A stretch of 64,000 nt of DNA from Pseudomonadota bacterium (GTDB lineage: Bacteria > Pseudomonadota > Gammaproteobacteria > Arenicellales > UBA868): NCBI GenBank assembly GCA_018672825.1, contig JABHUE010000096.1, positions 28,890 through 92,889 on the forward strand, read 5' to 3'. Both the position numbers and the translations under genes were made by a program. This document shows positions 2,467 through 41,016 of this stretch, piece by piece. A model generated the notes under the pieces. It was not told the origin of the DNA. It searched no databases and saw only the letters and a list, made by a program, of their open reading frames with translations. How positions within the stretch are numbered: position 1 is the stretch's first letter; the number at the start of each line of letters is the position of its first letter.

Positions 2467-3870
<1,404 letters not shown>

Positions 3871-3874
<4 letters not shown>

Positions 3875-4467
3875 GGATCGACTGTCGCTTTTATTTTTCT
3901 AACGGAACGGGCTGGCGACAACTCCCAGATGTCAATCTCATCATTATCCTGCCTAAATCCATCCAGACAGGCTGCGCTAAAACAACCGGTCAATACAGCC
4001 TTGAATGCCATATTAGCGCCTTGATGACCGACTACTAACACATCTCCCGGAAACGCTTGAATCTCAGCAACAAGCGGTGTGAGCCGATCTGCCACATCTT
4101 TGAGACTCTCGCCCCCCGGTGGCGGCAATAAAAACCCTTCCGAGCGCCACTGATCATAAAAATCAGAATCTTCAGCCCGTAAATCGGCTTCAAACTTGCC
4201 TTCCCATTCACCTAAATCGAGCTCTGTCAGTCGGGCATCCACCTCAATATCTAAAGATAAAGTGGCGCCCAGAATCTGTGCAGTCGTCTTGGCTCTTGCG
4301 AGTGGCGAACAGATAAGTCTCTGTAGTTTACAAGGCGCGTCGCGCAGGTGATCAGCGAGGGCTTTCGCTTGTTTCTCTCCCATCGCATTGAGAGGAATAT
4401 CGCTCCTCGACTGCCATCGTCTCGCGAGATTCCAATTCGTCTGGCCGTGACGGGCAATTAATATCAT
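3871..4467 (-). CDS. Histidine phosphatase family protein (phosphoglycerate mutase/CobC-like)
   Basis: ARHGQT, SPLARAKTTA, ELDLGEWEG, PGGES, VGHQG. Confidence 0.88.
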
Positions 4468-4562
4468 CCGTTAATGTTACCTCCTATCCCCAACAAATTA
4501 AGGTCAGTTTCAGGACCGCTGTGACTGAAAACCTGATCCTTCGATAACATTAGTTTCGGCTA

Positions 4563-4591
4563 TTGACTTCACTCGTGTTCAGCGTTAGAGT
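4563..4591 (+). promoter_or_regulatory. sigma70-type promoter
   Basis: TTGACT (4563-4568) - 17 nt - TAGAGT (4586-4591). Predicted TSS about 4598. Confidence 0.65.
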
Positions 4592-4597
4592 CGCGAC

Positions 4598-4678
4598 AGA
4601 TTTGTGCAACGCACAATATCTTTTTTATCCTCCTCCTATATTTAATCCCGCTTTGGCAATCATTGCGGGATTTTTTTT
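4598..4678 (+). ncRNA. Candidate ~80-nt trans-acting sRNA with MmgR/suhB-like architecture
   Basis: Promoter, 5' hairpin ttgtgc-aac-gcacaa, anti-SD tract tcctcctcct (4628-4637), then an intrinsic terminator. No SD-led ORF. Confidence 0.55.
4644..4678 (+). terminator. Rho-independent terminator
   Basis: aatcccgc (4644-4651) / gcgggatt (4665-4672). An 8-T run at 4671-4678 follows the GC core. Confidence 0.8.
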
Positions 4679-4878
4679 GGCTTTAAAAACAGTAGATTAT
4701 TAATTAATAGATAGAGATTATGAATCTTTATCCATAAATAGATTGGCACTGACTATCGACACCAAACCATATTTTTTGCTCTGCAACATTTCTAGAATCA
4801 CTAAAAACACCAAACCCGAGCAGAAGATAAAATTGCGCCTTGCGACAAAGGCTTTTTAACACTATTCCCGGTTCCCTA

Positions 4879-5862
4879 ATGACTTTAGATGCTCAACCTG
4901 TTCTTTTTATATTTCCCGGCCAAGGCTCCCAGTATCCCGGCATGGGCAAAGACCTCTTCGACGCCTTCTCGAGCGTACGAGACATTTATACCGAGTCCAG
5001 TGATGTGCTCGGCTATGACATCGCGGCGCTCTCTTTCGACGACCCAAAAGATCAGATTCATCTCACGCGCTTTACCCAGCCGGTCTTACTCACACACTCA
5101 ATTGCATGCTTAAACCTCTTTCAAGAGCAACTCAGTACGCGAATCACTCCGCGAGCCGCCGCCGGTCATAGCCTTGGGGAATATGCTGCCCTCGTTGCCT
5201 CAGGCGCTCTCGATTTTGCGTCCGCACTGCGACTGGTAAATGAACGAGGTCGCCTAATGGGCGAGCTTGGTGAAGGTGAGATGGAAGCCCTGCCCCTTGA
5301 ATTTCAGGACGCCAAGATCATTGCGGAGAAACATTATTGTGCAGTCGCGGCTTGCAACCTTCCCGATCAAACAGTGGTTGGGGGTCGGGCTGCAGATCTG
5401 GACAGTCTTATTGAGGAATTTGGAATCCATTTTCCCGAAAAACGATCGGCCCGCCTTAAAACTGAGGGCGCGTTTCATACTTTTTATATGATCGAGACCG
5501 CAATGAAATTTAGATCAACCCTAGCAAACGCACCGCTACAAGCACCCTCTGTATCAGTATTGTCCAATGCGTCAGGTGCTTTTCATACCAAAGACCCGGA
5601 TGCTATTCGGGCGGCTCTGTTTATACAGCTCTTTAATCCTGTCCTTTGGAATGCCAATCTTAACCACGCAGTTGAAAACGGATGTCAGGCAATCATTGAG
5701 TTTGGCGGCGGCATTGGCAAAGGGCAGGGTCCCGCAGGAAAAAAACCCAATCTTGCGGGTATTGTTAAGAAAACATTCCGGCGGCATGATAATCCGCCGC
5801 AGTATTCAAGCGTAATAAACATCGACACTCTAGAAAAATCGATCACACTCTGCACAACGTAA
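4879..5862 (+). CDS. fabD: Malonyl-CoA:ACP transacylase (FabD-like acyltransferase), stand-alone
   Basis: FPGQGSQ, GHSLGE catalytic motif, RGRLM, GAFHT. ATG at 4879 preferred over the track start at 4840. Confidence 0.85.
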   Translation: MTLDAQPVLFIFPGQGSQYPGMGKDLFDAFSSVRDIYTESSDVLGYDIAALSFDDPKDQIHLTRFTQPVLLTHSIACLNLFQEQLSTRITPRAAAGHSLGEYAALVASGALDFASALRLVNERGRLMGELGEGEMEALPLEFQDAKIIAEKHYCAVAACNLPDQTVVGGRAADLDSLIEEFGIHFPEKRSARLKTEGAFHTFYMIETAMKFRSTLANAPLQAPSVSVLSNASGAFHTKDPDAIRAALFIQLFNPVLWNANLNHAVENGCQAIIEFGGGIGKGQGPAGKKPNLAGIVKKTFRRHDNPPQYSSVINIDTLEKSITLCTT

Positions 5863-5899
5863 CTTGACGCAGCTTCCTAGCAAAAAGATTTAAATTTTT

Positions 5900-6805
5900 T
5901 TGAATACGTTAGCGCTTTACGGCCTGACCGTCTTGATCTGGGGATCAAGTTGGTTTGCAATCCGCTATCAACTTGATTTTGTACCGCCTGAAGTGTCACT
6001 GTTCTACCGGTTTCTTCTCGCCTCTATCATTCTTATTGTTTGGTGTTTAGGACGAGGAATCTCATTAAAAATAAAAACACGACAGCATTTTTTTCTTGCA
6101 GCACAGGGATTTTGCATGTTCGGCTTGAACTATATTCTGTTCTACCATGCTGCATTTGATATAGCGAGCGGGCTTTTGGCCGTCGTATTTTCGATGATCA
6201 CCGGCATGAACATTATCAACGGGGCGGTGTTTCTCAAGCGCCCCATTCGAACCAAGACAGCCGTGGGTGCGGCGATCGGCCTATGCGGAATGGGTCTTGT
6301 TTTTTGGCCAGAAATCACGTCATCAGGTAAAGTGGCCGTGGGCGCACTTATCGTTAGCGTGGCGGCCACGTATTCCGCATCACTCGGTAATATTCTGTCT
6401 GCACGCAATCAAGCCAGTGGCATCTCGGTTACCGCGGGCAACGCCATCGGTATGACCTACGGTACCATTTTTCTATTCGTATATTGCATGTATTCGGGCT
6501 CCCCATTCGTCCTCGAGCCCAGTCTGAAATATCTCGGATCACTGATGTATCTGGCGTTCTTCGCCTCGGTTATTGCCTTCGGTTGCTACCTGACCCTCAT
6601 TGGTCGAATTGGCCCAGGCAACGCAGCGTATGCAACTGTTTTAGCACCTATCATTGCGCTCGCGTTATCGACAGGATTCGAGGGATACCAGTGGCAAGTG
6701 AGAGCAATAATTGGTGTTGGGTTCGTACTTATAGGAAACATTTTGGTTCTGGCCCCAAAACATGCTCTGATCAAGGCTGGCCTACGCCTCAAGTTAAAGA
6801 TCTAA
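5900..6805 (+). CDS. DMT/EamA family transporter
   Basis: About 10 TM segments in two EamA repeats (LIWGSSW..., FASVIAFGCYLTLIGRIG). Confidence 0.88.
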   Translation: MNTLALYGLTVLIWGSSWFAIRYQLDFVPPEVSLFYRFLLASIILIVWCLGRGISLKIKTRQHFFLAAQGFCMFGLNYILFYHAAFDIASGLLAVVFSMITGMNIINGAVFLKRPIRTKTAVGAAIGLCGMGLVFWPEITSSGKVAVGALIVSVAATYSASLGNILSARNQASGISVTAGNAIGMTYGTIFLFVYCMYSGSPFVLEPSLKYLGSLMYLAFFASVIAFGCYLTLIGRIGPGNAAYATVLAPIIALALSTGFEGYQWQVRAIIGVGFVLIGNILVLAPKHALIKAGLRLKLKI

Positions 6806-8059: not shown

Positions 8060-11000
8060 TTACATTCCGCGACGGTATTTTCCGCCCACCTCAAAAAAGG
8101 CCTGAGTCAATTGACCCAGAGAGCAAACCCGAGCTGCATCCATTAATGGATAGAACACGTTTGCCCCGTTTAGTGCCGCATCCTTGATGGCGCGCACAGC
8201 CGCACGAGATGCGTGTTCATTGTGTTCATGAAAAGCCGCCAGCCTCTTTAACTGACGTTGCTTTTCTGACTCAGTGCCGCGCGTCAAAGCAACCGGAGAT
8301 TTCTCTGCGCCTTCTTCTGAGATAAACGTATTGACGCCCACAATCGGAAAAGTACCATCGTGTTTTTGAGTCTCATAGTAGAGTGACTCCTCCTGGATTT
8401 TTCCGCGCTGATAACCTGTCTCCATTGCGCCTAAAACGCCGCCTCGCTCAGACAAACGGTCAAATTCTTCGAGTACGGCCTGCTCGACCAAGTCAGTGAG
8501 TTCCTCAATGATAAAACTTCCCTGGTTTGCATTTTCATTTTTTGCTAAACCCCACTCTCGATTAATAATGAGTTGAATAGCAAGTGCTCGTCGCACAGAC
8601 TCTTCACTCGGCGTGGTAAACGCTTCATCGTGTGCATTAGTATGTAAACTATTACAATTATCGTAGACGGCAATCAATGCCTGAAGGGTCGTACGAATAT
8701 CATTAAAGCTCATTTCTTGGGCATGCAAAGATCGACCTGAAGTTTGAATATGATATTTCAGTTTCTGGCTACGCTCACTAGCACCATAACGATCACGCAT
8801 CGCAATCGACCAGATCCGTCTCGCAACGCGTCCGAGCACAGTATATTCAGGATCCATACCGTTTGAGAAAAAGAACGAGAGATTGGGTGCAAAATCATCA
8901 ATCGCCATACCGCGCGCCAAATACGACTCTACGTACGTGAATCCATTTGAAAGCGTGAGGGCCAACTGCGTGATTGGGTTCGCGCCAGCCTCGGCAATGT
9001 GATAACCCGAGATAGACACAGAGTAGAAATTTCGAACCTGGTTATCAATGAAATACTCTTGAATATCCCCCATCATTCGGAGACTGAAGTCTGTCGAGAA
9101 TAAGCAAGTATTCTGACCTTGGTCCTCTTTGAGAATATCAGCCTGTACCGTGCCCCGCACCTGCATGAGGGCCCGACTCTTGATCTCCCCATGCTCATGC
9201 TCAGTCGGCAAGCGTCCTTGCATCTCATTAAATTTATCAACTTGCTGGTCAATTGCTGTATTCAGAAAAAACGCTAATACGGTAGGCGCCGGGCCGTTGA
9301 TTGTCATCGAGACAGACGTTGCGGGATCACACAGATCAAACCCCTCGTAAAGCACCTTCATATCATCAAGCGTAGCGATAGATACACCTGATGTTCCAAC
9401 CTTACCGTAGATATCAGGGCGTAATGCAGGATCAGCGCCGTAAAGCGTGACCGAATCAAAAGCGGTTGATAATCGTTTCGCGCTGGAATCCGCCGACAAC
9501 AGTTTGAATCGTTGATTCGTACGCGCAGCGTCCCCTTCTCCTGCGAACATACGGGTCGGATCCTCATTTGCCCGCTTAAATGGGAACACGCCCGCGGTAA
9601 ACGGAAAAAGACCCGGCAGATTTTCAAGCATCTGCCAGCGCAACCGATCCCCGGCATCATGATATCGAGGCAGACTGATCTTGGGAATACGTGTGCCGGA
9701 AAGTGAAGTAAAGGAAAGCTCGACGTCATGGCGTTCTCCGCGGACATCGAAACTCATAGTGTCTTTTTCATAGCGACCCTTTAAATCATCAAACGTCGCA
9801 ATAATCTGAAGCATATCAGGGCCAAGTGCTTCTTCTATCTCATTAAGCAGGGTCACCAAGGCATGGGTCGTGTCGCTGTGCTCTTCTAGTAGTGCGATGC
9901 TTGTTCTGAGATGCTGAGAGCGACGCGCAAGTTCCTCGAGCTTGCAAACCCGTTCATGGTAACGCCTTACACTCAATGCAATCTCCGAAAGATACCGCTC
10001 TCGGTCGCTTGGTATCGACACATCTAAACTGCTCTCTGACTCTGGCGGGCGCAAATGATCACGTCCTTTTACAAGGCCATGCTCAACCAAGCACAAACGC
10101 AAGCCTCGATAAAGATCAGTTACGCCAGCGTCATTAAAACGAGACGCCATCGTCGCAAATACCGGCATATTCTCAACCGGTCGAGAAAATGCCACACGAT
10201 TTCTCTGCATTTGCTTTCGAACGTCCCGGAGCGCGTCCTTCGACCCTTTTCGATCTGACTTGTTAATAGCGACCAAGTCCGCGTAATCAAGCATCTCAAT
10301 CTTTTCTAATTGAGATGCCGCACCAAATTCTGGTGTCATCACATAAAGCGACACATCTGCTTCTTCGACAATTCCAGCGTCTCCCTGACCAATCCCTGGT
10401 GTTTCGACAATCACTAAATCAAAGTCTGCCGCGCGACAAGCGGTAACCATCCGGCTCAGTTCAGCTGGAATTCCACCACCCGCGGCACGAGTCGCGATAG
10501 ACCGAAAGAATACGGTTTGCCCTTCGATCGCATTCATGCGAATACGGTCTCCTAGTAGCGCGCCACCGGTCTTCCGGCGAGTCGGGTCTACCGCTAAAAC
10601 TGCAATTCGGAGCTCATCATCAGAGTCGATCCGCAATCGCAATATCAATTCATCGGTTAAAGATGACTTTCCTGATCCACCTGTGCCCGTAATACCCAGG
10701 ACCGGTATCTTCTTCTGAGCTGAATCTACGTTAGATTGAATTTGCCGCGCCATATCATCACTTAGCGTACTATTCTCAATCTCAGTGAGCACCCGCGCGA
10801 GACACGCATGATTACGCGCATCCAGCTTATCCAAAAATTGAGTGGCTTCTTCACCCGGATAAAAGCTTGCCCGCGACAACATGTCATCTATCATTCCCTG
10901 CAGTCCTAGTCGCTGACCATCTTCGGGGGAATAAATTTTCGAAACACCATAATCATGGAGAGCCCGAATCTCCTCGTCAACAATAACGCCACCGCCACCG

Positions 11001-11326
11001 CCGAACACTCGAATATCACCTCGACCTTTTTCGCTCAGCATGTCGACCATGTATCGAAAATATTCTGTGTGGCCGCCTTGATACGAGCTGACCGCGATCC
11101 CCTGAACGTCTTCCTGAACCGCAGCATCAACAATCTCAGCCACGCTACGGTTATGGCCGAGATGAATGACTTCAGCGCCTGATGCCTGTAGAAGCCGACG
11201 AATAATATTGATTGATGCATCGTGACCATCAAAAAGGCTGGCCGCCGTAACAAATCGGATTCGATAATCAGTATCAGCGTAGGATTGTGGGGCCGATGAG
11301 GATTGACCGGTCAGAACTACACTCAT
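8060..11326 (-). CDS. icmF: Fused isobutyryl-CoA mutase / MeaI GTPase chaperone (AdoCbl-dependent)
   Basis: N-terminal B12 domain (FDGHDAS), GTPase ([21 protein letters not shown]), mutase barrel ([32 protein letters not shown]). ATG at 11326. Confidence 0.95.
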
Positions 11327-11358
11327 GAAAACTCGCAATTGAAACAAATGATGAGTTG

Positions 11359-11406: not shown

Positions 11407-11814
11407 ATGCTTTCGATCTCCGCGGCCCTCGATGAAAAAGACATTTTGTTCTCTATCTCTGATCTCGCGAGAGAATTTGGGGTTACCACTCGGGCGATTC
11501 GTTTTTATGAGGATGAAGGACTGCTCAGTCCGGGTCGCAGCGGTCGACAACGCGTCTATACGTCTCGGGATCACGTCAGACTCAAACTGATCGTGCGAGG
11601 CAAGCGTCTTGGATTTTCGCTAAGCGAGGTTCGAGAGATTATCGAAATGTATGACCTTGACTCGGGCGAGAACGGGCAACTTCGTTACTTTTTAGAGCAA
11701 ATTAAGAAACGCCGCGAAGCACTGCAACAACAGCGCTATGATATCGAGCTGACGCTCGGCGAGCTGGATTCGATTGAGTCCGAGTGTAAACATCGACTGT
11801 CTGCTTTAAGTTAG
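11407..11814 (+). CDS. liuR: MerR-family regulator, LiuR type
   Basis: FSISDLAREFGVTTRAIRFYEDEGLLSP, RLKLIVRGKRLGFSL, no metal-binding Cys set, adjacent LiuR box. Confidence 0.85.
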   Translation: MLSISAALDEKDILFSISDLAREFGVTTRAIRFYEDEGLLSPGRSGRQRVYTSRDHVRLKLIVRGKRLGFSLSEVREIIEMYDLDSGENGQLRYFLEQIKKRREALQQQRYDIELTLGELDSIESECKHRLSALS

Positions 11815-23848: not shown

Positions 23849-25420
23849 TTAACGCACTTCAGGTGCTGTCGCGAAGGTATGGTAGGGCGCCGGCGAAGGC
23901 ACAGTCCATTCCAACCCTTCAGGGTTATCCCAAACCTCTGCAGTCGCTTTTTTGCCGCCACGAATTGATTTAATGACCACCCACAACAGAATCAGCTGAG
24001 AGAAACCAAGGATGAACCCGCCAATACTGGACACCATATTGAACTCCGCAAACTGCAGTGAGTAATCGGGGATTCGTCTTGGCATACCCGCAAACCCTAA
24101 GAAGTGCTGCGGAAAAAAGGTGATATTAAATGAAATAACGGTGAGCCAAAAATGAACCTTACCAAGCGTCTCGTCATACATATGACCGGTCCACTTCGGA
24201 AGCCAGTAATAGACTCCCGAAAACATGGCCAGCACAGAACCACAGAAAATTACATAGTGGAAATGAGCCACAATAAAGTAGGTGTCATGATACTGGAAGT
24301 CAGCCGGGGTAATCGCCATCATCAGCCCCGTCAGGCCGCCAACGGTAAAGAGCGCGACCGTTGCAATCGCATACAACATCGGCGTCTCAAAAGTCATACT
24401 GCCTCGCCACATCGTGGCGAGCCAGTTAAAGACTTTTACACCGGTTGGAATAGCGATCAGCATCGTGGAATACATAAAGAACAACTCACCGGACAAAGGC
24501 ATACCAACGGTGTACATGTGATGCGCCCAAACAATAAACGACAAGAACGCAATCGCGGCAGTGGCAAACACCATCGAGGTATAACCAAACAGAGGCTTAC
24601 GAGAAAATGTTGGAATGACCTGAGAGATGATTCCAAACGCCGGCAGAATCAGAATATAGACTTCCGGATGACCGAAAAACCAGAAAATGTGTTGGAACAT
24701 TACCGGATCACCACCGCCTGCTGCACTAAAGAACGCAGTTCCAAAATGACGGTCGGTCAGTAACATGGTCACCGCACCCGCAAGAACCGGCATCGCAGCA
24801 ATCAGCAAGAAAGCCGTAATGACCCAGGTCCAAACAAAAAGCGGCATTTTCAGAAGCGTCATCCCTGGCGCCCGCATATTGAGTATGGTCGCGATAATGT
24901 TAATGGCGCCCAATATGGAGGACATGCCGAGGATGTGAATAGTGAAGATCGTTAGATCAACACCCATTCCACCTTGTATTGAAAGCGGTGGATAAATAGT
25001 CCAGCCTGCAGCAGGCCCACCACCCGGCACAAAAAGCGACGTGATGAGTAGCGTGGTGGCGAAAGGCAGCAACCAGAAGCTCCAGTTATTCAGTCGCGGT
25101 AGCGCCATATCAGGCGCGCCGATCATCATGGGCAGCATCCAGTTAGCAAAGCCGACAAAGCCAGGCATCACCGCACCAAAGATCATTACCAACGCATGGA
25201 CGGTAACCATCTGATTATAAAAATGGGGGTTAACGACCTGGAGACCTGGCATAAAAAGTTCAGCCCGAATAACCAGTGCCATTGCACCGCCCACGAGAAA
25301 CATAATGAACGAAAACCACAGATAAAGCGTGCCAATATCTTTGTGGTTGGTGGTAAACAGCCAACGCGTAATACCCTTCGGTACCTCATCGTGATGATGG
25401 TCTGCAACCGCTGTAGTCAT
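23849..25420 (-). CDS. coxA: Cytochrome c oxidase subunit I (aa3, A1 type)
   Basis: TNHKDIG, GHPEVY, VWAHHM, VAHFHY. Confidence 0.98.
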   Translation of the reverse strand: MTTAVADHHHDEVPKGITRWLFTTNHKDIGTLYLWFSFIMFLVGGAMALVIRAELFMPGLQVVNPHFYNQMVTVHALVMIFGAVMPGFVGFANWMLPMMIGAPDMALPRLNNWSFWLLPFATTLLITSLFVPGGGPAAGWTIYPPLSIQGGMGVDLTIFTIHILGMSSILGAINIIATILNMRAPGMTLLKMPLFVWTWVITAFLLIAAMPVLAGAVTMLLTDRHFGTAFFSAAGGGDPVMFQHIFWFFGHPEVYILILPAFGIISQVIPTFSRKPLFGYTSMVFATAAIAFLSFIVWAHHMYTVGMPLSGELFFMYSTMLIAIPTGVKVFNWLATMWRGSMTFETPMLYAIATVALFTVGGLTGLMMAITPADFQYHDTYFIVAHFHYVIFCGSVLAMFSGVYYWLPKWTGHMYDETLGKVHFWLTVISFNITFFPQHFLGFAGMPRRIPDYSLQFAEFNMVSSIGGFILGFSQLILLWVVIKSIRGGKKATAEVWDNPEGLEWTVPSPAPYHTFATAPEVR

Positions 25421-26805: not shown

Positions 26806-27030
26806 CGTTGCACCGCAACCAAGATGCTGTTTGGAAAACCAATGCCCGACATTGCCGAAGGCTGGAATTCCAATATTGGTTAAGAAAACACTGCGAACAC
26901 TAGCATATTAGAGATAAATGCATCAAGCATGATCCCTTTATTCTTACCGCTAAAAGACTTACTACCAGAGTTGGTTAATCGGCCAAAATCCAAAATATTG
27001 GGAGAACAATCAACGCGGTCCAGCCCGCGC

Positions 27031-40470: not shown

Positions 40471-41016
40471 CTAATAAAGAATTTCGACCCGACGATTAAG
40501 GGACCAAGCGCCCTCATCTTGACCCATCGACACCGGGCGTTCTTCGCCATAAGAGATCGTGCGAATCGCATCCGGCGCCACACCAAGTGCCTGAAATATC
40601 TCGCTCACCGAATTTGCACGACGCTCTCCGAGCGCCAAGTTGTACTCACGAGTACCCCGCTCATCTGCGTGCCCTTCAAGTACCACTGCCATTCCTGGAT
40701 TACCTGACAGATACTGCGCATGCGCTTCCACAACCATCTGGGCTTCTGGAGTCAAATTAGCACTATCGAAATCAAAATAGACTACGCGCTGACCGAGTGG
40801 ATCGTCCATATCGCCCTGATCGTCCGATTCAAGGATGATAATTTCTCCTGCCGTCGTGTCCTCAGAGCCAATGCCAGACGAGCTCGACTCGGTTGAACTT
40901 CCGATTGTGGCGTCCTCAACCTCTACGCTGCCGCCTTTCTTTTTGGAAGCCGCACAACCTGAAATAGCAATTCCAAGGAATAGTGCTAAAAATATTGTCC
41001 CGAATCTACGCATCAT
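40471..41016 (-). CDS. pal: Peptidoglycan-associated lipoprotein
   Basis: Lipobox ISGC, VYFDFDS, GHADERGTREYNLALGERRA. Confidence 0.97.
   Translation of the reverse strand: MMRRFGTIFLALFLGIAISGCAASKKKGGSVEVEDATIGSSTESSSSGIGSEDTTAGEIIILESDDQGDMDDPLGQRVVYFDFDSANLTPEAQMVVEAHAQYLSGNPGMAVVLEGHADERGTREYNLALGERRANSVSEIFQALGVAPDAIRTISYGEERPVSMGQDEGAWSLNRRVEILY

Follow-up and report, generated by a model that had tools for sequence, protein, structure and literature searches.

The 64,000-nt stretch of contig JABHUE010000096.1 that was analysed here (64 kb; hereafter the window), from a gammaproteobacterium of the UBA868 lineage of Arenicellales, carries a compact non-coding unit between a divergent histidine phosphatase family gene and a co-directional fabD-like acyltransferase gene. 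We favour, at a probability of roughly 0.6, the reading that positions 4598–4678 of the plus strand are the gene for an independently transcribed, trans-acting small RNA (sRNA) with a predicted length of ~81 nt, in which an unpaired AUCCUCCUCC seed would occlude Shine-Dalgarno (SD) regions. The unit was judged to be real because of the z-score of its fold, its recurrence as a whole in relatives and a conservation above that of the neighbouring genes.

Anatomy of the unit

A preliminary description of this DNA had listed a promoter, a palindrome, a pyrimidine tract, a stem, a U-run and a repeated 8-mer, and all of these elements were present in the sequence. The parts of the unit, in window coordinates, are as follows.

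4563–4568, plus strand: -35 box TTGACT, seen in the sequence and in a consensus promoter scan
4586–4591, plus strand: -10 box TAGAGT, separated from the -35 box by a 17-nt spacer (sequence and consensus promoter scan)
4597–4599, plus strand: predicted transcription start at A4598, placed 7 nt past the -10 box
4598–4621, plus strand: 5' stem-loop AGAUUUGUGC-AAC-GCACAA-U-AUCU in the minimum free energy fold, including the palindrome
4602–4616: palindrome (dyad P1) TTGTGC-AAC-GCACAA with a TGC-N3-GCA core, at about +5 to +19 and 11 nt past the -10 box
4621–4641, plus strand: pyrimidine tract, with CCTCCTCC inside it at 4629–4636
4622–4643, plus strand: single-stranded U-rich linker with the anti-SD seed, AUCCUCCUCC, at 4627–4636
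4644–4678, plus strand: intrinsic terminator, consisting of a stem, a 13-nt loop and then U8

The terminator stem is formed by 8 bp, in which AATCCCGC (4644–4651) pairs with GCGGGATT (4665–4672), and the T8 run occupies 4671–4678; the arms sit one base to the left of where a quick reading puts them. The 8-mer CCTCCTAT occurs at two places, 4632–4639 and 4480–4487. The predicted fold of the 83-nt RNA has an energy of -21.3 kcal/mol and a z-score of -4.55; in it, an open linker separates the 5' hairpin from the terminator hairpin. A check of open reading frames (ORFs) within the unit found none led by an ATG or by an SD sequence.

Each motif taken alone was no better than chance in the window. 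Promoter-like sites were observed 6 times versus 3.3 expected in 2.5 kb, CCTCCTCC once versus 1.7 expected in 64 kb, and the palindrome with two or fewer mismatches once versus 3.1 expected.

Conservation across Arenicellales

The unit was found at the same phosphatase/fabD-like junction in at least four further marine Arenicellales clades. The sRNA there lies between the leftward His_Phos_1 gene and the rightward fabD-like gene, whose proteins are 60–91% identical to that of the window. The clades, with the identity of their fabD-like proteins to that of the window, are as follows.

Clade A (~89–91%): the window, L006, L089 and L090
Clade B (~65%): L001–L004 and L084–L101
Clade C (~70–73%): L102–L105 and L109
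Clade D (~61–62%): L107, L108 and L110
Clade E, a decayed form (~60–61%): L111 and L112

In every clade a near-consensus TTGAC[AT]-N17-TAnnnT promoter stands ~10 nt 5' of a hairpin, followed by a U-rich linker, a GC-rich hairpin and U7–9. The -10 box of the relatives reads TACATT, TAAAGT, TAAATT, TATTAT, TAAGAT or TACCAT, with T1, A2 and T6 always kept, and a CAG/UAG context just 5' of the hairpin, at the predicted start, was kept in most clades. The terminators are strong throughout, with stems of 8–12 bp and a U7–9 run in all clades. The seed AUCCUCCUCC was invariant in 17 sequences. It is kept in clades A–D, with one C-to-U change in L110 that would keep pairing to G. The probability that the seed is unpaired was 1.0 in the window, 0.94–1.0 across clades A–C and 0.5–0.57 in clade D. 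The sRNA segment of clade A was 77–80% identical to that of clades B/C, compared with 59–68% for the flanking coding sequences and 42–50% for the spacers. Selection acts on the unit as such.

A covariance model (R1) was built from 12 sequences and returned E-values of ~1e-23 to 1e-13 in clades A–C and of 1e-4 to 6e-3 in clade D; the corresponding scores were 92.7 bits for the window, 64–83 bits for clade C and 23–31 bits for clade D. With this model no second copy was found in the 64-kb window, and there was no match near the fabD-like genes of distant relatives in which the gene lies in other contexts (L005, L007, L008, L010 and L106). A metagenome scan for ATCCTCCTCCT-N3-6-TTAATCCCG returned 21 loci, 11 of which were true clade A/B members, the others being chance matches in coding DNA.

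The structure was 89.7% paired on a 17-sequence alignment, versus 38–56% with the partners slid, the alignment having been fitted to the model, which favours structure. Ten pairs were changed on both sides, including seven in the terminator (7/10 terminator-helix pairs), and 94.6% of the cells of the terminator stem were paired in the alignment of relatives. The observed covariation score was reached by 0 of 500 shuffles. Conservation in relatives was borne out for the terminator with its covarying stem, for the CCUCCUCC tract and for the geometry of the promoter. The idea of a self-contained, non-coding unit in a gammaproteobacterium, with a predicted length of ~81 nt, likewise stood. So did that of a single-stranded anti-SD tract before the terminator, which is unpaired in clades A–C between the 5' hairpin and the terminator.

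As a separate observation, the terminator loop of clades D and E reads CCCUC (GCGCCCUCCGCG; L107 2218–2241, L108 2124–2149, L110 1218–1241, L111 1325–1349). This is a second C-rich, anti-SD-like motif, still there where the linear motif has decayed.

Proposed mode of action and candidate targets

In the proposed mechanism, the unit's own sigma-70 promoter, under a presumed regulatory signal, would start the sRNA and the intrinsic terminator would end it, while the 5'-terminal hairpin may protect the 5' end and possibly serve as a protein site. The CCUCCUCC stretch exposed in the unpaired U-rich linker could block ribosome-binding sites (RBSs). The seed would pair with the GGAGG-type SD regions of a few mRNAs encoded elsewhere in the genome, and this pairing would block 30S binding and probably speed mRNA decay. 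At the 3' end UAUAUUUAAU precedes the terminator hairpin and its U8 tail, an arrangement typical of Hfq-binding 3' modules, and dependence on Hfq is presumed.

Several observations weigh against this reading. A duplex scan of the 64-kb window showed no outstanding site and identified no target. SD usage looked very low: a 4-mer SD core stood upstream of a candidate start in 19 of the 68 window ORFs (start codons uncurated), and an SD of five or more bases in only three (the phosphatase gene at 4467, coxA at 25420 and a pal-like gene at 41016). With SD sequences seemingly so few in the genome, an SD-occluding regulator would have few possible clients. The hfq gene was not found among the 68 ORFs of the window. 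The linear motif of clade E is eroded, reading CUCCUU or GUCCUU.

Twenty metatranscriptome runs were examined, in which RNA was represented by unstranded assembled contigs at a depth of 2–26, and among these low-depth contigs none equalled 4598–4678 alone, i.e. no discrete transcript of ~80 nt was seen. Contigs from X39 and X42, as well as from X62 on L003, crossed both promoter and terminator, so that read-through, antisense transcription and DNA carry-over are all possible. RNA libraries of this type usually lose RNAs of ~80 nt, and the contigs therefore neither show nor exclude an RNA of that size.

It had been suggested that the 8-mer could pair with the RBS of the divergent phosphatase gene. 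The repeat and the duplex are real in the window strain (-17.9 kcal/mol for the CCTCCTAT match), but they are not conserved in relatives: the RBS reads AGGAGG in the window strain only, the nearest relatives have GAGAGAAG or AGGAUG (-8.6 kcal/mol), and most other clades lack an SD at the phosphatase gene. This RBS was rejected as a target because the complementarity is strain-specific. Also rejected were coaD, fdx, HhH-GPD, the fabD-like gene, EamA and MFS, which showed no SD and no conserved pairing.

Possible read-through and antisense transcription

The transcript contigs bear on two further readings. The unit always adjoins the fabD-like gene and points in the same direction, which would suit a cis-acting leader, where the promoter at 4563–4591 partly reads through the terminator into the fabD-like mRNA and the ~80-nt RNA is an attenuation by-product or a processed 5' fragment. 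Contigs from X25 (4632–4833), X29 (4631–4822) and X39 (4546–4849) span the terminator, and those from X26 start at 4684 and 4696, just past it, and enter the gene. The spanning contigs may nevertheless be DNA, as they are unstranded and no deeper than their flanks. Within the RNA the 5' arm of the terminator finds no alternative (antiterminator) partner, the terminators are strong (8–12 bp, U7–9), and the 200–360-nt spacer to the gene cannot be aligned between clades. The fabD-like gene moreover has a conserved -10 box of its own.

4828–4833, plus strand: TAAAAT, a likely -10 box of a promoter belonging to the fabD-like gene itself, kept upstream of the start

TAAAAT or TACAAT was found 45–75 nt 5' of the fabD-like start codon in every clade and also in L106, which lacks the sRNA. 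Overall, we regard a leader as distinctly unlikely.

Contigs continuous with the phosphatase gene (X27, X28 and X33) extend to 4617–4624, where they end, and a contig from X25 on L003 extends to the end of the terminator. Together with a promoter-like TTCATA-N17-AATAAT on the minus strand at 4724–4696, these contigs could indicate a cis-antisense pair, in which a minus-strand RNA, the phosphatase mRNA or another, begins within the sRNA gene or to its right and is the overlapping, perfectly complementary target of the sRNA. However, the X27, X28 and X33 contigs end short of the GGAGGAGG complement at 4629–4636 and carry no strand information, and no conserved minus-strand promoter was found in the other clades. 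AT-rich spacers such as this one also yield many chance promoter matches (6 versus 3.3 expected). A cis-antisense arrangement is thus, in our view, very unlikely, and an sRNA acting in trans is still preferred.

Other features of the contigs were noted in their own right. Contigs to the right of the break begin at 4631–4632 (X25 and X29). The break at 4617–4632, inside the U-run/anti-SD tract, recurs in runs of several studies. A strain polymorphism at 4660 falls where other contigs end (near 4656–4662), and nothing was read into these ends. A species of ~125–135 nt at about 4691–4824, with Illumina adapter at both ends, was seen in two runs of one study (X31, 4691–4824; X33, 4696–4820 and 4698–4820, at a depth of 10–16.5 and in two strain variants). 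The X26 contigs, from a third run of the same study, have adapter-flanked starts at 4684 and 4696, past the terminator, and run into the fabD-like gene. The contigs at ~4691–4824 may represent a discrete RNA of ~130 nt or a defined 5' untranslated region end; no significant fold was found for 4691–4824 on either strand. A small hairpin, GCCTTGCGACAAAGGC, followed by T5 at 4837–4857, lies 22 nt before the fabD-like start and is terminator-like on the plus strand.

Coding potential and strand

A small plus-strand ORF starting from the -35 box was ruled out, since indels between clades break its frame. Only the plus strand accounts for the geometry of the promoter and for the conserved U-run behind the hairpin. 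The minus strand was considered for a mini-ORF, in which AGGAGGAGGAU, with an AUG behind it in clades B and C, would act as a strong RBS for a peptide of 13–15 residues. In these two clades GGAGGAGGATATG has ideal SD-start spacing and is the best SD of the locus, and AGGAGGAGGAUAUG resembles an ideal ribosome-binding site. Against this, the mini-ORF has no start codon in clade A and L105, meets a stop at codon 4 in L002 and is frame-shifted in L104, and the peptides have in common only the residues that the palindrome encodes. It would extend into the plus-strand promoter, and it leaves unexplained the conserved U-run and promoter, which fit the plus strand alone. We therefore consider a minus-strand peptide extremely unlikely, and small ORFs on both strands were rejected, as none is conserved.

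The palindrome, a second dyad and a possible operator

The palindrome P1 may be read as part of an RNA hairpin, as a DNA operator or as both. P1 makes up the top of the 5'-terminal hairpin; one stem pair there alternates between U-A and U-G, and the lower stem changes on both sides, from U-A to A-U between clades A and B and from A-U to G-C in L004. In clade D, P1 is replaced by 5' hairpins of unrelated sequence; the most distant clades lack the TGC-N3-GCA palindrome. A second dyad of the same type was found outside the sRNA.

4774–4788, no strand assigned: dyad P2, TTTTGCTCTGCAACA, with a TGC-N3-GCA core, ~100–130 nt past the terminator

P2 is present in clades A–C, with copies at 2759–2773 in L001, 2754–2768 in L003 and 1297–1311 in L109, and is degenerate in L102; it is possibly an operator shared with P1. 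The intergenic regions of clades A–C each hold exactly two TGC-N3-GCA dyads (L102 holds one), against a background of 0.27–0.37 per kb. Neither TTGTGC-N3-GCACAA nor TTGC-N3-GCAA was over-represented in the window, the count of the latter being not above chance. The only other TTGC-N3-GCAA in the window, TTGCACCGCAA at 26808–26818, lies directly upstream of a DUF2244 gene that heads the cytochrome oxidase cluster.

The preliminary description had compared P1 with PhaR operators, and the TGC-N3-GCA core is indeed common to P1, P2 and the operators of PhaR/PhbF in Herbaspirillum seropedicae and in Rhodobacter sphaeroides (CTGC[N]3GCAG). The footprinted PhbF consensus of H. seropedicae is TG[N]TGC[N]3GCAA, and PhaR of Ralstonia eutropha also binds at a transcription start site (PMC3206438); the dyad here similarly sits near a (predicted) start. 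P2 of clade B (TGTTGCATTGCAA, TGGTGCACTGCAA) fits the PhbF consensus at 10/10 positions and P2 of the window at 9/10, and L108 carries CTGCGACGCAG, i.e. CTGC-N3-GCAG as in R. sphaeroides PhaR. P1, in contrast, matches the consensus at its 6-nt core only. No phaR or polyhydroxyalkanoate (PHA) genes lie in the window (phaR, phaC and phasin genes were all absent among the 68 ORFs), and the dyad is missing from the clade D sRNAs. No report of PHA in UBA868 was found in the literature. The PhaR idea is not empty, given the second dyad and the exact clade B match to PhbF, yet it rests on a six-base core.

An alternative to RNA pairing is that the palindrome is mainly a DNA operator, at which a TGC-N3-GCA repressor, PhaR/PhbF-like or other, would bind P1 and P2 and co-regulate the sRNA and the fabD-like gene. 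Such an operator could supplement the sRNA model or, in the strong version of this reading, be the sole reason for the conservation of the segment. The six core pairs of P1 are nearly invariant in clades A–C, unlike the terminator stem, and this fits an operator, as do the two dyads per intergenic region, the position of P2 outside the sRNA, its match to the PhbF consensus in clade B, the L108 sequence and the start-site binding in R. eutropha. However, P1 has only the core in common with that consensus, clade D keeps the sRNA yet swaps P1 for unrelated hairpins, and the compensatory changes in the lower stem around P1 point to RNA pairing. P2 lies at anything between 93 and 233 nt from the start of the fabD-like gene, phaR is absent from the window and PHA from the UBA868 reports found, and an operator alone would leave the invariant CCUCCUCC, the U-run and the promoter unexplained. 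On balance we hold the operator reading to be possible, though rather unlikely. More speculatively, and only as a long shot, one PhaR/PhbF-type TGC-N3-GCA repressor might control both the sRNA and the fabD-like gene in a storage/acyl-carbon circuit like that of AniA and MmgR in rhizobia, convergent or ancient, in which the sRNA of an abundant marine gammaproteobacterium poor in SD sequences would silence its few strongly SD-led mRNAs.

Comparison with known RNA families

Nothing reached the gathering score of an Rfam family anywhere in the 64-kb window. Permissive Rfam scans of the sRNA region and of six relatives gave sub-threshold matches only, mostly to sRNAs with C/U-rich regulatory tracts (RF02278, VrrA, NmsRb, ar14, RsaE and suhB). 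The best of these was the Betaproteobacteria toxic small RNA family, RF02278, with 23.6 bits in the window and 30.7–32.3 bits in L001, L104 and L105, against a gathering score of 50. The alignment covers the motif and terminator only, the family's first hairpin being largely deleted. Members of this family (ncS03, ncS05, ncS27 and ncS62 of Burkholderia cenocepacia) likewise carry a CUCCUCC-type motif followed by a GC-rich intrinsic terminator; they are orphan sRNAs of 57–92 nt whose function in the native host is unknown (PMC4603805). In RF02278, however, the loop of the first hairpin shows the motif, whereas here it lies in a linear linker after a different 5' hairpin. RF02278 is also betaproteobacterial, while the present unit is found in a gammaproteobacterial host and in a single copy in 64 kb.

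The preliminary description had raised homology to the alphaproteobacterial sRNA MmgR (suhB, RF00519), and this part did not hold. RF00519 was not listed for the window at E ≤ 10 and scored at most 20.8 bits in relatives (L104; 20.6 bits in L001), against a gathering score of 41. The likeness to MmgR/alpha-r8 of Sinorhizobium meliloti lies in a length of ~77–81 nt, an own sigma-70 promoter, an anti-SD motif and a promoter-associated dyad. MmgR folds into three stem-loops, the first of which presents the anti-SD motif in its loop (PMC7143759). An AniA/NtrC-responsive dyad is located between its -35 and -10 boxes (PMC8401924), and no direct target of MmgR is known (PMC7143759, PMC8401924). The unit described here, in contrast, has two hairpins, an anti-SD motif in the linker and a dyad downstream of the start, and its host is a gammaproteobacterium, outside the alphaproteobacterial range of MmgR. 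Hfq dependence and control of phasin/PHB levels are further marks of MmgR; neither hfq nor phaP, phaC or phaR lies in the 64-kb window. Homology to MmgR/suhB was rejected on the RF00519 scores and the differing architecture.

A check against the cuckoo family had likewise been proposed. The anti-SD motif CCUCCUCC(C) is shared with the cuckoo/alpha-r14 RNAs (CcsR1-4 and NfeR1), in which it is the only conserved sequence and in which occlusion of the SD of several mRNAs has been shown for NfeR1 (PMC4615179, PMC7143759). The family model (ar14/cuckoo, RF02344) gave 25.9 bits in L001, against a gathering score of 58.8, and no match for the window. Cuckoo RNAs, often present in several copies, have 2–4 hairpins that each show CCUCCUCCC in the loop, whereas a single linear motif, CCUCCUCCU, is present here. 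The unit shares two features with trans-acting, Hfq-type anti-SD sRNAs in general: an own promoter and an intrinsic terminator with U-tail, conserved as a unit, and a conserved, accessible C/U-rich seed complementary to GGAGG. Judged from these comparisons, the sRNA appears to resemble the anti-SD functional class without belonging to any curated family and is a candidate new family.

Genomic context

The two genes that flank the unit are as follows.

3871–4467, minus strand: divergent gene of the histidine phosphatase family (His_Phos_1), scoring below the cut-off for cobC in NCBIfam
4879–5862, plus strand: downstream fabD-like acyltransferase gene (Acyl_transf_1), co-directional with the sRNA

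The fabD-like gene scored 212 bits, short of the 260.9 that NCBIfam sets for fabD equivalogs, and does not lie in a fab cluster; L106 is an instance of this gene in a different context. The remainder of the window is ordinary chromosome (ftsY, coaD, icmF, purB, the cox operon, type IV pilus genes, secA, tol-pal, ruvABC and aspS). It includes a gene for a fused isobutyryl-CoA mutase/GTPase, IcmF (8060–11347, minus strand; 1825 bits, above the cut-off), which adjoins a divergent MerR-family regulator gene (11407–11814, plus strand) and is syntenic in relatives too.

The GC content of the window, ~49%, fits that of UBA868 isolates, which have genomes of 2.6–2.7 Mb with 49.4–49.5% GC (bioRxiv 10.64898/2026.04.01.715867). 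The sequence is common in marine metagenomes. The closest genome was that of Arenicellales bacterium nBUS_45, with 89% fabD-like identity. In its complete genome (L006) the fabD-like match fell into two tblastn pieces and the MFS match into three (3001–3982 and 4931–6217), which suggests frameshifts or assembly indels.

Significance

To our knowledge, no regulatory RNA has been described in UBA868/Arenicellales. In the mesopelagic ocean these bacteria are abundant worldwide and prominent in transcription. They were first cultured only recently (bioRxiv 10.64898/2026.04.01.715867), and it is this host, together with testability in culture, that gives the locus a moderate interest. The locus would provide a well-defined, conserved sRNA gene with a covariance model that can be tested in culture, and, since SD sequences are seemingly rare in the genome, its possible targets may form a small, tractable set. 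If the favoured reading is true, a gammaproteobacterial family would join the anti-SD sRNAs already described in alpha- and betaproteobacteria.

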